Source of the DNA: Gemmata obscuriglobus
GTDB lineage: Bacteria > Planctomycetota > Planctomycetia > Gemmatales > Gemmataceae
Reading direction: 5' to 3'
NCBI RefSeq assembly: GCF_008065095.1
Contig: NZ_CP042911.1
Coordinates: 6,030,001 to 6,062,000 of the forward strand
DNA length: 32,000 nucleotides
Both the position numbers and the translations under genes were made by a program. A model generated the notes under the pieces. That model was given only the letters and a program-made list of their open reading frames with translations. It did no database searches and had not been told where the DNA came from. Positions 1 through 15,223 of the stretch are shown here, piece after piece (within the stretch, counting starts at the first letter, position 1; every line of letters starts with the position of its first letter).

Positions 1-51
1 GGCCGGCGGGATCCGGTCGGCGAGGGCGCGAACTCGGCGGGCGAGGCTCAT
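1..51 (-). CDS. hypothetical protein, first 17 codons only (continues past the left edge)
   Basis: The ATG at 49-51 (minus) overlaps the TGA (48-50) of the upstream gene as ATGA. It reads MSLARRVRALADRIPPA with mostly G/C third positions. The N-terminal pattern matches two other small proteins in this block. Confidence 0.3.
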   Translation of the reverse strand, partial: MSLARRVRALADRIPPA

Positions 52-518
52 TGGCGGCTCTCCGGTGCGTCGGGGCGGTCATTGGCCGCGTGACTCGTGC
101 GCCCGCCGCACGCCGGGCAGGTCGGGAACGCGCGGAGGTCGGCGAGCGGGCGCGGGTCGCTGGCGGGGACGAGGACCAGCGGGACCGCGAGCCCACAGGA
201 TCCGCAGTGGTGCCCGAACCAGAACGGGCGGGGCGGTTCGAGCACCCACCGCACCAGCGCCTCGGGCAGCCGGTACCCGGGCGCCGGCGCCGGTACCCAG
301 CGGGCGAACGGGGCCCCGACCCAGGACGACAGGGCCTCGGAGTCCTGGCCGTACGGCTCGTCCAGCCGGGCCGCCATCCGCTCGCGCAGCGCCTCGGTCA
401 CCAAGGCCAGGAACGCGGCCCGGTCGCGGGTCCAGTCCGGCTTCGGGGGCGCCGGACCGGCCGCGGGACGGCACGCGACACGCGCAGTCAGCGCCTCGAT
501 TCGACCGCTCAACCGCAT
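48..518 (-). CDS. hypothetical protein with C-terminal CxxC...CxxC zinc-ribbon-like motif
   Basis: 156-aa ORF with normal amino-acid composition, unlike the overlapping Arg/Pro/Gly-rich frames. ATG at 516-518 is preceded by GAGGGTG. Motifs HHCGSCG and CPACGG. Confidence 0.6.
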   Translation of the reverse strand: MRLSGRIEALTARVACRPAAGPAPPKPDWTRDRAAFLALVTEALRERMAARLDEPYGQDSEALSSWVGAPFARWVPAPAPGYRLPEALVRWVLEPPRPFWFGHHCGSCGLAVPLVLVPASDPRPLADLRAFPTCPACGGRTSHAANDRPDAPESRQ

Positions 519-527
519 GGCACACCC

Positions 528-920
528 TCACCAGTTGGGAAGGGATTGCTGCTCGTTGCCCTTGACCAGCGCCTCCAGTTCACTCATCCGCACCTCCAAC
601 TCGGCCACCTCGCGCACCTTGAGGCCGAGCTCGAGTATGGCCCGCGCGGCCCCGAGCCTCGTGGCCGGCGGTGTCGAACTGCCCTGGAGTGACAGCAGCG
701 TGCGGACGGCCTCGCCGGCGGCCGCGGTGAGCATCCCGGCGCACCGCCGCACCATGTCGCCGCGGAGCTCCGCGAGCCGGCTCTTGAACGCCGGGTCGTT
801 GAGCCGCCGGTACACGGTGCGGTCGGTCAGCTCGCACTGCTTGGCCGCGGCCTCGACGGTGGCCCCGCACGCCAGCGCCAGCAGCAGCTTGTCGTCGTTC
901 TTCTTCACCCGGTCGCCCAT
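528..920 (-). CDS. helix-turn-helix DNA-binding protein with C-terminal coiled coil (phage regulator or terminase-small-subunit-like)
   Basis: These are the last 130 codons of the 528..3587 track ORF. ATG at 918-920 is preceded by GGAGGAG. HTH-like segment ATVEAAAKQCELTDRTVYRRLNDP. C-terminal heptad-like segment VAELEVRMSELEALV. Confidence 0.65.
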   Translation of the reverse strand: MGDRVKKNDDKLLLALACGATVEAAAKQCELTDRTVYRRLNDPAFKSRLAELRGDMVRRCAGMLTAAAGEAVRTLLSLQGSSTPPATRLGAARAILELGLKVREVAELEVRMSELEALVKGNEQQSLPNW

Positions 921-933
921 GTCGCTCCTCCGC

Positions 934-1053
934 TCAGGTCGGTTCGCGGTGCCCCGGTTGGGGCTCGGCGTGGTCCCACACCACGGTCGCCCGGCCGGGC
1001 CACACCGCGGCGCCCGGGGCTCGGTCCTCGCCGTCCGTGATCGGTAGATACAT
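934..1053 (-). CDS. small hypothetical ORF (39 codons from the ATG; the frame stays open upstream, possible GTG start at 1108-1110)
   Basis: Hand translation gives MYLPITDGEDRAPGAAVWPGRATVVWDHAEPQPGHREPT*. Third positions are almost all G/C. Its TGA sits just before the GGAGGAG RBS of the next gene. It is below the ORF-track length cutoff. Confidence 0.3.
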   Translation of the reverse strand: MYLPITDGEDRAPGAAVWPGRATVVWDHAEPQPGHREPT

Positions 1054-1168
1054 GCGGACCGCGGGACGGACACGCGCCCCGTGCCGTGCGGCCCGCGCGG
1101 CCAGGGCCACGACCCGCGCCGAGATTCGTCCGCCGAACGCCCACTTCGTTCTCCCGGGCTGATCCGTG

Positions 1169-1471
1169 TCAGCCGTTCCCCGGCTCCCGGGCTTCGAGCG
1201 GGTCCGGGGCCGGCGGGTCGAGTTGGTCGAGCCCGAGTACGATCAGCAGCCCGAACGGGGCCAGCGCGCCGTCGGGCACCACCGGCTCGCCGGCGGCCGG
1301 GTCGTACACCAGGGTGCCGGCGAGCGAGCCCGGCGGGCCGTCCCGGTACAGCCCCGGCGCCCGCCCCTCGGCCCGATGCACGGGAACCGCCTCGACGACG
1401 TGGAACACGCCCGGCCGGGGGCGCCCGGCAACCCACTTCGCGACCTTGTCGACCCGCCCGGTGAGCCGCAT
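1169..1471 (-). CDS. hypothetical protein
   Basis: 100-aa ORF with balanced composition. ATG at 1469-1471 is preceded by GGAGCA. It lies in the same operon-like minus-strand array. Confidence 0.5.
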   Translation of the reverse strand: MRLTGRVDKVAKWVAGRPRPGVFHVVEAVPVHRAEGRAPGLYRDGPPGSLAGTLVYDPAAGEPVVPDGALAPFGLLIVLGLDQLDPPAPDPLEAREPGNG

Positions 1472-1513
1472 CGGGTGCTCCTGCGTCAGGTAAGTTCGGA
1501 GCGCCGTCAGGGT

Positions 1514-14110: not shown

Positions 14111-14604
14111 GTGCCCTCCGGCTTGTTGAGCTTGAAGAAGTGGAACCCGTTGAGGTGGGTCCCGGTGACCGCCGCGGCGACCGCGCTGAGGGAGGCGAAC
14201 GTCCGGCCGTCGTACTCGAACCCGCTGGCCAGCACCAGGACCTGAACGTCGGCGCCCTTGTACGTGCGGGTGATCACGGTGCCGGGCGGGGGCAGTCGCG
14301 GGTCACTCGCGTGCGTCGGCACGGTGCCGGTGCGGACCGGCCCGGGCGCGGGTTCGTCGGCGTGGCCCTTGGGCGGGATCAAGCGCAGGTCCGCGTCTCG
14401 GGCCAGCTCGGCGGCCCGGGCTTGCGCGCGGGCGCTGAGCCCGCCCTCGGCCAGGGCCTGGAGCCGCCACGCGATCCTTCGGACGAGCCACGTGCGGTTG
14501 CCCGACGCGGTGGGCTCGCCGAACACCTCCGCGTACCGCGCCCGCAGCTCTTTCGGGGTCAGCCGGCGCAGCCCGGCCAGTTCCTTCGCGACGTCGATCG
14601 GCAC
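14107..14604 (-). CDS. DUF2924-family protein (recombinase-associated)
   Basis: Motifs LTPKELRARYAEVFGEPTASGNRTWLVRRIAWRLQALAEGGLSARAQARAAELA and C-terminal YKGADVQVLVLASGFEYDGRTFASLSAVAAAVTGTHLNGFHFF match my memory of DUF2924. The GTG at 14602-14604 lies 6 nt after GGAGGT. An alternative ATG sits at 14698-14700. Its TGA overlaps the recombinase ATG (ATGA at 14107-14110). Confidence 0.75.
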   Translation of the reverse strand: MPIDVAKELAGLRRLTPKELRARYAEVFGEPTASGNRTWLVRRIAWRLQALAEGGLSARAQARAAELARDADLRLIPPKGHADEPAPGPVRTGTVPTHASDPRLPPPGTVITRTYKGADVQVLVLASGFEYDGRTFASLSAVAAAVTGTHLNGFHFFKLNKPEGT

Positions 14605-14650
14605 CTCGTGACCTCCACGGAAAAGCTGGCGATCTCGGCTCTCGGCGGCG

Positions 14651-14860
14651 TTAACCGCCGGTCCCAGTGACGCTCTTTTCGCGCGCGTCCGCAAGCTCAT
14701 TCGTGCCAAAATCTGAGGTTCCGGCGGTGCCGGTGGAGGGCGGTGATTCGTGTACGAGCAGGGCCGAGCCGATGCGCACGAGCCCGGTGGCGAGGAGGCG
14801 CGCCAGCTCGCGGGCGCGCTCGTCGGGGGTGAGGGTAACGGGGTTGCGGGTGGAAGGCAT
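14651..14860 (-). CDS. small hypothetical protein (69 aa) heading the recombinase operon
   Basis: ATG at 14858-14860 is preceded by GAGGTG. The sequence MPSTRNPVTLTPDERARELARLLATGLVRI... has high third-position G/C in its first ~35 codons. Confidence 0.4.
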   Translation of the reverse strand: MPSTRNPVTLTPDERARELARLLATGLVRIGSALLVHESPPSTGTAGTSDFGTNELADAREKSVTGTGG

Positions 14861-14954
14861 CGGGGCACCTCGGGGGTGGACCCCAGCGGCCTTCGCGGTG
14901 CGACCGGCGTGCTGGCGGAAATGAGCGAGAGAAGTCTCTACCTGTTAATTACAC

Positions 14955-14966
14955 CGAACCGGTTCG
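14955..14966. repeat. perfect 12-bp palindrome CGAACCGGTTCG
   Basis: Read directly from the sequence. It is flanked by ACAC ... GTGT and by TTAATT. It lies in the AT-richer 363-bp divergent spacer. Confidence 0.8.
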
Positions 14967-15054
14967 AAGTGTTCAGAGAAGGGCGCTAGGCGTGGATCCG
15001 AGCACTGGTTGTGTGAGTGCCGCCCGGCGCCGGTAGCGGGGCGTTCGGCGCCGA

Positions 15055-15108
15055 CTCGTCTGCGTGCTCGAGGCGGAAAACCGACTCCGTCGTGAGCACG
15101 CAGACGAG
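15055..15108. repeat. perfect 15-bp inverted repeat with a 24-nt spacer
   Basis: CTCGTCTGCGTGCTC (15055-15069) is the exact reverse complement of GAGCACGCAGACGAG (15094-15108). CCGACT occurs immediately around both arms. Confidence 0.8.
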
Positions 15109-15223
15109 CCGACTGGTTACCGGGGCGTTCCAAATTTAATTGTTTCCACATGCCGAACGATGTCTAATTTCTCATGTTTTCTCGCCCGGCCGGTACTGGC
15201 TGAGCGGCCCCGAGGAAGCCATC

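Follow-up and report, generated by a model that had tools for sequence, protein, structure and literature searches.

The 32,000-nucleotide stretch of DNA analysed here (the window) belongs to the chromosome of Gemmata obscuriglobus, where exact protein matches identify it with record ABGO01000001 and with the complete genome CP025958. We consider it probable that window positions 1-14,975, together with some 0.74-0.93 kb further to the left, constitute one integrated mobile element of 15.7-15.9 kb. With the same degree of confidence, this element is best explained as a self-replicating integrative element made of three modules, and not as a complete prophage, belonging to a family that is conserved in Gemmataceae and in other Planctomycetota. 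New here are the origin-like repeat arrays that lie within the replicase gene, in a candidate origin of about 300 bp. We found no description in the literature of these arrays, of the gene backbone or of the element itself.

The window has a GC content of about 72% and its raw lists of open reading frames (ORFs) are noisy. Genes were defined by frame analysis of the GC content at third codon positions (GC3) and were identified with Pfam, PHROGs, PADLOC and a PDB profile search, with public gene calls agreeing independently. In the original prediction, made from the letters of the DNA, this part of the window was taken as an integrated, phage- or plasmid-like element that brings along a replicase, a sigma factor and a serine integrase. 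The Pfam, PHROGs and PDB profile searches bear this out. Of the two possibilities raised there, a prophage or a self-replicating integrative element, the latter gained support from the conserved backbone of a whole family, from the finding of the replicase also with tyrosine integrases and from the candidate origin in the replicase gene.

The replicase and the repeats in its linker

The replicase (4387-8751, minus strand, 1454 amino acids) is encoded by one uninterrupted ORF with a GC3 of about 0.94. Pfam places in it, in this order, Prim-Pol, DUF3987 and, beyond a variable linker, DNA_pol_A_exo1 and DNA_pol_A. The Prim-Pol match (PF09250, residues 10-178) barely exceeds its cut-off (24.0 vs 22.8 bits); the other matches include PF00476 (1.2e-65) and PF01612 (4.5e-25). 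Judged from its domains, the protein is an AEP primase-polymerase, a DUF3987 P-loop helicase-like domain, a 3'-5' exonuclease and a family A polymerase (PolA) in one polypeptide. For DUF3987, a role as helicase in mobile elements has been predicted (Kazlauskas et al. 2018, PMC5862659). The catalytic residues were checked in an alignment of 14 replicase sequences, in which the AEP motifs DxD and SxH, the Walker A motif GxxGxxKS, the exonuclease motif DxE and the PolA motifs A (D..SQIELR), B (RQ..K..NFG..Y) and C (HDE) are all invariant or nearly so. Specifically, H163 of the AEP domain, D918/E920 of the exonuclease and D1241/E1246, R1288/K1292/N1295/F1296/G1297 and H1406/D1407/E1408 of PolA are invariant, and D78, D80, D82 and Y1300 are nearly so.

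About 25 full-length homologues of the fused replicase were found, with 44-76% identity, mostly in Gemmataceae and in metagenomes of other Planctomycetota. A library with clusters drawn at 50% identity contains at least 14 that align with the protein from end to end. The two halves have different affinities. The N-terminal PrimPol-DUF3987 half resembles proteins that replicate small non-mobilizable plasmids, with matches to 15 records from plasmids and to 2 from metagenomes that are labelled as phage. The PolA half resembles phage PolAs, and the standalone PolAs nearest to it come from cyanobacteria, Aquificota, Acidobacteriota, Nitrospirae and viral contigs. Apart from the viral contigs, these are also the sources that a published classification (Czernecki et al. 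2023, PMC10201439) lists for its PolA clusters #8 and #10. The same study recorded the same domain fusion in the same phylum as a domain architecture only, and describes neither the carrier element nor the DUF3987 that separates the two halves nor the repeats in the linker.

The linker between DUF3987 and the exonuclease (6023-6386) is the sole part of the replicase ORF where GC3 collapses. It holds a candidate iteron-type replication origin at 6085-6386, which consists of copies of the octamer GTGTGACA, three in one orientation (6379-6386, 6306-6313 and 6288-6295) and three inverted (6171-6178, 6104-6111 and 6085-6092). The octamer occurs seven times in the whole window, where 0.8 occurrences are expected and where none of 100 shuffles reached this count, and six of the seven copies are those of the linker. 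Translation reads these copies in more than one frame (GVT, RCDT, GCDR), which makes the repeat one at the DNA level and not a peptide repeat.

Similar arrays were found in the linkers of nine of the ten other fused replicase genes examined, where each element has an octamer of its own in 4-12 copies, both direct and inverted (for example GCATGACA, GACGAAAC, GTGTGACG, CGACGATA, GACACTTC, CAAATCAT, ATTTTGAG and GGTGACAC); the array of locus L009 is weaker. (Relatives are denoted below, where needed, by locus handles beginning with L or contig handles beginning with P.) Mostly, a block of direct copies is followed by a block of inverted copies, with the orientations being interleaved in L007, L013 and L014. 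In eight of the ten loci (20-42 kb) covered by an unbiased scan, the linker came out as the 400-nt stretch with the highest density of repeats; in the remaining two it ranked second, behind low-complexity G/C runs. In Gemmata algarum, the replicase reaches 1699 amino acids with a linker of about 1.1 kb (L007 12,330-13,470), in which GTGTGACG occurs 12 times, the copies forming several groups, direct and inverted, that give the impression of a duplicated origin-like unit.

Because the position and architecture of the arrays are conserved while their sequence is specific to each element, the repeats are putative binding sites of a cognate protein. The most economical reading would be that the linker arrays are candidate iteron origins recognised by the replicase itself; the main alternative is an array of regulatory operators. 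There are precedents for both aspects of the former. The origin of phage lambda lies inside gene O, in the region coding for the linker of the initiator, and the alpha protein of satellite P4 is a multidomain primase-helicase that binds octamer iterons in ori and crr, in direct and inverted orientation. The Gemmata arrays share with these systems the short octamers in both orientations and the placement within DNA that encodes the linker of the putative initiator. The Gemmata system differs from them in that a proofreading polymerase is fused to the putative initiator and that binding is a predicted one; the primase of P4 alpha, moreover, is of another type.

Ends, gene array and recombination module

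The closest relative of the element is that of G. algarum (L007). Homology between the two copies (blastn) spans window positions 14,975 to -743, negative numbers denoting positions left of the window, and is broken at the variable gene slot, the replicase linker, the HARE-HTH gene and the intein, all described below. At the right end lies a motif with dyad symmetry (14937-14975, minus strand), ACACTTCGAAC-cg-GTTCGGTGTAATTAACAGGTAGA, which is a candidate attachment site of the recombinase. The sequence GGTGTAATTAACAGGTAGA occurs once in the window; G. algarum has it unchanged, and it is also conserved in two metagenomic elements, L006 and L008. The motif is common to these four elements, none of which has an outer flank related to that of another; the flanking genes of L006 and L007, being unrelated, are not shared cargo. 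As the motif is conserved across unrelated flanks and homology to L007 starts at 14,975, the right junction can be placed at about 14,960-14,975. This agrees with the boundary of 14.9-15.2 kb that had been predicted originally. The motif has the look expected of the integrase-proximal attachment site of a serine recombinase, for which it is a candidate by its sequence.

At the other end, the suggestion that phage structural genes might lie left of the window did not hold. To the left of p156, the last complete gene in the window, there are just three further small ORFs, p108, p64b and p104 (108, 64 and 104 amino acids; L001 10468-11320), all kept in G. algarum. Beyond p104 follows a convergent BREX operon with BrxHI, BrxD, PglZ and BrxC/PglY (PADLOC, E 2.5e-198 to 0), which was found in the approximately 10 kb left of the window (L001 11,451-20,471, corresponding to window -932 to -9,952). 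Since this operon, and not phage structural genes, directly follows the left end, a complete prophage is rejected. The operon also served to place the junction. On metagenome contig L173, which carries a BREX 94% identical to that of G. obscuriglobus, homology ends exactly at the BrxHI stop (window -931) and an AIPR gene follows, with the element being absent. The left junction is thus bracketed to -931..-743, between the end of homology to L173 and that to L007. BREX as a cargo of the element is likewise ruled out, as L173 carries BREX without the element and diverges at the BrxHI stop; the operon is rather an independent module. The BREX of L173 additionally has PglW and PglX, and between brxD and brxHI it has a 387-amino-acid gene (L173 17,705-18,868) that is missing in G. 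obscuriglobus.

Between these ends, no virion genes (large terminase, portal, major capsid or tail) were found from -931 to 14,975. Among the element proteins there was no match to capsid, portal, tail, lysis or conjugation families in Pfam and PHROGs, as had been noted earlier for capsid, tail and conjugation genes in the first 15 kb of the window. Among those scanned, there was no Pfam family of relaxases, type IV secretion or coupling proteins, and none of partition genes.

The genes form a single dense minus-strand array over positions 1-14,860, with a lone plus-strand gene at 3781-4251, as given by both GC3 frames and public gene calls, and the four predicted ATGA stop/start overlaps are all present (48, 8748, 12503 and 14107, each TCAT on the plus strand). 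From the right end, the order of the backbone is orf69, DUF2924, large serine recombinase, p139, a variable gene, p103, ECF-type sigma factor, p99, p64 and replicase, after which come the HARE-HTH gene, a ParB-methyltransferase with an intein, p100, a small-terminase-like helix-turn-helix (HTH) protein and small ORFs. A change in orientation, content and composition had been predicted for positions 14861-15223. Orientation and content do change there, but composition does not: the GC content is 73.1% in the element, 72.9% in the BREX flank and 70.1% in the right flank (70.5-73.9% in single flank genes), and the 248-bp spacer alone dips, to 62.5%. Base composition is therefore uninformative as a boundary marker.

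The recombination module begins with orf69 (14651-14860, minus strand), a conserved small ORF of 69 amino acids found at the same position in L006, L007, L169 and L170 (amino acid identity 86% to G. algarum and 49% to L006). It is followed by the DUF2924 gene (14107-14604, minus strand; PF11149, 6e-40), which is coupled to the recombinase gene by the ATGA at 14107-14110 and precedes it also in L006, L007, L008 and the P0002 contig. The recombinase itself (12503-14110, minus strand, 535 amino acids) comprises three domains, Resolvase (PF00239, 1.7e-38, residues 24-176), Recombinase (PF07508, 9e-14) and Zn_ribbon_recom (PF13408, 3e-16). The catalytic serine is at its expected position, in CAIYTRKSTEE, and the protein is 95.5% identical to its G. 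algarum orthologue. With a serine-bearing catalytic domain and C-terminal recombinase and zinc-ribbon domains, it is, by sequence criteria, a large serine recombinase, or integrase. Coupled to it in turn by an ATGA (12503-12506) is the gene for the HTH-like p139 (12087-12506, minus strand), which matches phrog_14161 (labelled 'recombinase'; 1.4e-16) and is kept after the recombinase in L007, L008, L013 and L171. Its AlphaFold2 (AF2) model was too poor for searching (mean predicted local distance difference test, pLDDT, 49.8). We consider p139 a candidate accessory or directionality factor.

The sigma factor of the backbone is of the ECF type (9331-9909, minus strand, 192 amino acids); it matches SigE/SigL/RpoE in regions 2 and 4 in the PDB profile search (E 7e-9) and phrog_1740 'sigma factor' (2.2e-7); its orthologues show weak Sigma70_r2/r4 matches.

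Taken together, these genes suggest how the element would work. The module of orf69, DUF2924, recombinase and p139 would insert and excise the element at a dyad-symmetric site, the element-proximal half of which would be 14,937-14,975. Of this, we observe the protein domains and the conserved end, and we infer how recombination proceeds chemically, where the crossover takes place and what DUF2924 and p139 do. The ECF-type sigma factor would direct the host RNA polymerase to promoters of the element. The replicase would recognise the six GTGTGACA repeats in the DNA of its own linker, open the DNA, prime it and copy the excised circle, both its binding and the origin function being predicted. 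The ParB-domain methyltransferase, active after splicing of its intein, would shield the DNA of the element from restriction. For the route between cells, which is the least certain step, the likeliest is the packaging machinery of a helper phage, as in phage satellites, because the present member lacks large terminase, portal and capsid genes.

Relatives, packaging genes and competing explanations

The backbone from the recombination module to the terminase-like gene recurs in L006, L007, L008, L013, the P0002 contig and Zavarzinella formosa (L171), the last having a replicase without the PolA half. Elsewhere, the replicase is accompanied by tyrosine integrases, namely in L004, where the integrase lies beside tRNA-Val, in L011 and in the P0013 contig. 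As integrases are exchanged while the replicase is kept, and as the contexts differ, the element is mobile at the level of the family. No cultured phage was found to carry the fused replicase, and in IMG/VR the PolA half alone was matched, at no more than 39% identity except on the short contig L089 (58%).

When compared with the G. algarum copy, all 15 genes have a ratio of non-synonymous to synonymous substitution rates (dN/dS) below 1, with values of 0.05 for the terminase-like gene, 0.14 for DUF2924, 0.15 for the recombinase, 0.28 for the methyltransferase, 0.55 for the replicase and 0.60 for p156. The synonymous rate forms a mosaic along the element, from 0.08 to 1.0, which is the pattern expected from an exchange of modules.

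The only packaging-related match of the element is that of the 130-amino-acid HTH protein (528-920, minus strand; HTH_23) to phrog_2538 'terminase small subunit' (7.5e-7). No match to this protein was found in the PDB sequence and profile searches. Its AF2 model (pLDDT 82.6) shows an HTH and a long helical hairpin, and the Foldseek matches of this model are weak (best viral E 1.3e-3), some of them being named small terminase. In L006, the P0002 contig, L171 and L172, the orthologous gene lies directly upstream of a Terminase_6N gene, with gaps of 3-17 bp where measurable and a 4-bp overlap in one case. A large terminase follows the terminase-like gene in these four and in L016. It consistently consists of two ORFs (Terminase_6N/6C), one encoding a Terminase_6N ATPase of about 275 amino acids and the other a separate nuclease (L006 20,024-21,459; L016 16,603-18,115; L171 10,001-12,088; L172 10,001-11,661). 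The ATPase ORF has 3331 database relatives, of which the best 120 are mostly 63-85% identical and about 270-280 amino acids long; this points to a very widespread type of element. Past the terminase, L016, L171 and L172 have ORFs of 167-318 amino acids without a match to portal, capsid or tail families, and the tape-measure matches of the 318-amino-acid ORF look like coiled-coil noise.

In the G. obscuriglobus element, the position of the large terminase of the relatives is taken by p156, p108, p64b and p104, and p100 lies upstream of the terminase-like gene. These five small proteins all begin with a common motif of about 18 amino acids, M-x-L-x-x-R-[VIF]-x-x-L...R-P. The ATPase ORFs of the split large terminases start with a similar R-L-x-R-L-E helix, which the unsplit P0064 lacks. 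Neither p100 (1169-1471, minus strand; GC3 0.93, 92% identical to G. algarum) nor p156 (48-518, minus strand; GC3 0.90, 91% identical) matches a Pfam or PHROG family; p156 is a small protein with CxxC...CxxC zinc-ribbon motifs. Of p108, the first 17 codons are in the window (1-51, minus strand, MSLARRVRALADRIPPA) and the remainder runs off its left edge.

With an integrase and replication functions of its own, and without a full set of virion genes, the element is possibly a phage satellite. A more specific version of this we put forward only tentatively. The element would belong to an undescribed satellite-like family of planctomycetes that combines a one-polypeptide replicase with a co-evolving, embedded iteron origin and that has a small terminase, and in some members a split large one, without capsid genes. 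In the Gemmata members, the five small proteins that share one N-terminal peptide would replace the large terminase and may act on the packaging motor of the helper.

Several observations weigh against a self-replicating integrative element and should be considered here. An empty attB site was not found, nor did public assemblies show an excised circular junction; among them, the recombinase gene occurs in chromosomal assemblies only. No matching dyad site was found at the distal end, and no inverted copy of the right-end motif in the distal region. Local alignments of both ends in both species for terminal direct or inverted repeats gave chance-level matches only. The GC content is host-like and does not set the element apart. 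The copies of G. obscuriglobus and G. algarum lie 3.7 kb and 2.0 kb, respectively, from a shared sequence downstream of tRNA-Asn; they may descend from one old insertion and are no proof of recent movement. Capsid and portal genes of planctomycetes could be too divergent for Pfam and PHROGs, and we know of no helper phage of Gemmata. Finally, the function of the linker arrays is a predicted one, and the assignment of the small terminase, which we regard as probable, rests on one PHROG match, gene position and a weak fold match.

It is unlikely that the element is an integrative plasmid-like one without any link to phages, in which the 'small terminase' would be an HTH regulator and spread would be vertical or proceed by, for example, vesicles or natural transformation. 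The resemblance of the PrimPol-DUF3987 half to replication proteins of small non-mobilizable plasmids would fit such an element, as would the absence of a large terminase from the G. obscuriglobus member and a terminase-like protein whose profile finds no PDB match and whose Foldseek matches are not significant. However, the orthologous HTH gene stands directly before a large terminase in four relatives, the very strong purifying selection on it argues for a conserved, specific function, and Pfam finds neither partition nor conjugation genes.

Quite unlikely, too, is a defective prophage remnant, that is, a tailed temperate phage of Gemmataceae that has lost its head, tail and large-terminase genes and of which the integration, early and replication region and the start of the packaging genes survive. 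Such a remnant would account for the small-terminase PHROG match, for the phage-like PolA and for a ParB-methyltransferase gene adjoining packaging genes, and it would agree with the relatives that keep Terminase_6N/6C directly after the terminase-like gene, one relative being on an IMG/VR contig (L089). Nonetheless, no portal or capsid gene follows the terminase in the relatives examined, an architecture of about 16-20 kb recurs in separate genomes and the fused replicase is found in no cultured phage or IMG/VR contig. A dN/dS below 1 in 15 of 15 genes, and of 0.05 in the terminase-like gene, is moreover unexpected for decaying DNA.

A fixed, immobile chromosomal island, with genes perhaps domesticated (the replicase for repair, the methyltransferase as an orphan modification enzyme), is very improbable, since the host-like GC content, the similar position relative to the tRNA-Asn flank in G. 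algarum and the lack of an excised form in public assemblies are set against strong purifying selection on the recombinase, DUF2924 and the terminase-like gene, wholly different distal flanks (BREX in G. obscuriglobus vs an Hma helicase in G. algarum), a backbone found in unrelated contexts and with different integrases, and element-specific repeat arrays that are maintained across copies.

Accessory genes, surroundings and known systems

The ParB_N and N6/N4 methyltransferase of the element (1514-3562, minus strand, 682 amino acids; Pfam ParB_N and N6_N4_Mtase, PADLOC MTase_II 5e-111) is interrupted by an insertion of 287 amino acids (about 1841-2701, minus strand), located between WKHEP and LYGW. 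In the alignment, the insertion begins with Cys, ends with His-Asn and is followed by Cys. The site is occupied also in L008 and is empty in the 394-amino-acid orthologues of L006 and L007. The C-terminal match to Intein_splicing is weak (E 0.0036, under the Pfam cut-off) and no match was found in the PDB sequence search. By its boundaries and its empty counterparts, the insertion is an intein, with splicing being predicted.

Of the small backbone ORFs, p64 (8748-8942, minus strand), which is acidic, is translationally coupled to the replicase gene through the ATGA at 8748-8751, and its position is conserved in L006, L007 and L008. Both p99 (9000-9299, minus strand) and p103 (10075-10386, minus strand) have orthologues in L006, L007, L008 and L013, those of p99 with 48-60% identity. 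The plus-strand gene at 3781-4251 encodes a HARE-HTH protein with Lys/Ala-rich tails (PF05066, 1.3e-11), and is accessory, being missing in L007 and present in the P0002 contig, L008 and L010.

The content of the variable slot is swapped between copies, and window positions 10382-12115 have no homology to L007. In G. obscuriglobus the slot holds p388 (10554-11720, minus strand), an orphan gene for 388 amino acids without a Pfam, PHROG or PADLOC match, around which the GC content is 79.5%. In most relatives, it holds an ORF of about 262 amino acids and one of 585-687 amino acids with a QueC-like PP-loop match (phrog_1550), the alternatives having been observed in L007 (5,569-8,104), L171 (617-3,458) and the P0002 contig. 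The QueC-like ORF possibly has a function in DNA modification. Upstream of p388 lies the largest intergenic region (11721-12086, minus strand), where the frame plot gives no coding signal and one sigma-70-like promoter match, a weak one to the consensus, lies at 11775-11803 (minus strand).

Just outside the right end, the spacer contains a 26-nt inverted repeat (15,052-15,111, 85% complementary, 8-nt loop) and a sigma-70-like promoter match (15,139-15,166, minus strand), and conservation in the G. algarum flank is seen for neither. On the proximal side, the element's neighbour within the window is a WD40-caspase protein (15,224-18,577), to which PADLOC gives a weak caspase match. On the distal side, each of the two species has a defence system next to the element, G. 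obscuriglobus BREX and G. algarum an Hma-type SNF2 helicase (HmaA, 5.8e-185, L007 18,927-22,361). The element sits in a region resembling a defence island.

Further to the right, the window contains the 3' 33 nt only of a tRNA-Asn(GTT) (18,923-18,955, minus strand), the 5' 40 nt being nowhere in the window. The 286 bp after the fragment (18,638-18,922) share 90% identity with the stretch that follows the tRNA-Asn of G. algarum, which is intact (L007 194-551). Rfam gives no match inside the element, and this conserved 286 bp is likewise without a family. The tRNA-Asn was rejected as an attachment site, as neither species has a second copy of it where the element ends on the other side. A better explanation of the fragment is the adjoining IS630-like (DDE_3) element (18,956-21,754), which begins where the tRNA is cut. 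Its transposase gene, with an N-terminal HTH ORF (18,980-19,216) and a DDE part (20,945-21,754), is split by a transposase gene of the IS66 family on the opposite strand (19,504-21,039).

Among known systems, the closest in logic are phage satellites with a serine recombinase (PLE, elements that resemble phage-inducible chromosomal islands), the marine VEIMEs (mobile elements that integrate and that virions encapsidate) and the tycheposons. With PLE and VEIMEs the Gemmata element shares a similar size (about 16-18 kb), a serine-recombinase integrase, a replication initiator of its own, the lack of capsid genes and, often, defence genes that are carried or lie beside the element; many VEIMEs also have small-terminase homologues. 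In contrast to both, it encodes a full primase-helicase-polymerase, an ECF sigma factor and a DUF2924/p139 recombination operon. To PLE there is no sequence relationship beyond the recombinase superfamily, and, as regards helper, induction and encapsidation, the Gemmata element is known from its genes alone.

The tycheposons of Prochlorococcus, including the PICI-like ones, have a site-specific integrase, mostly a tyrosine recombinase and in some cases a large serine recombinase, as well as autonomous polymerases, primases and helicases, with terS in a subset and with modules being exchanged (bioRxiv 10.1101/2020.12.28.424599). Their tRNA-linked integration has a likeness in the relatives with a tyrosine integrase (L004). 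Compared by description, tycheposons differ from the Gemmata family in phylum and in hallmark genes, and the Gemmata replicase is fused into one protein.

The original prediction had also drawn an analogy to pipolins and casposons. What defines pipolins is a family B DNA polymerase that is primer-independent (piPolB); casposons are defined by Cas1 and a family B polymerase (and by terminal inverted repeats). The analogy stands as far as the logic is concerned, in that an integrative element supplies the DNA polymerase itself, but the integrase and polymerase families differ and the defining genes are absent. A pipolin is ruled out, as the only polymerase of the element is of family A with an AEP, and a casposon is ruled out by the lack of a Cas1 or PolB match and of terminal inverted repeats.

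To our knowledge, Planctomycetes are a group whose viruses and mobile DNA are very little known. For one element of the model species G. obscuriglobus, the content and the approximate ends are now defined, its backbone recurs across Gemmataceae, and a replicase fusion that was so far on record as a domain architecture only gains a biological context. If the origin and the replicase work as proposed, the two would form a minimal two-part replicon, in which one gene contains its own origin. Such a replicon, if true, could be a basis for the genetic tools that are much needed in Planctomycetes, and the serine recombinase with its conserved end motif are candidates for tools of site-specific integration. 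If the element depends on a helper, phage satellites would be extended to a new phylum, which would imply that there are undiscovered phages of Gemmata.

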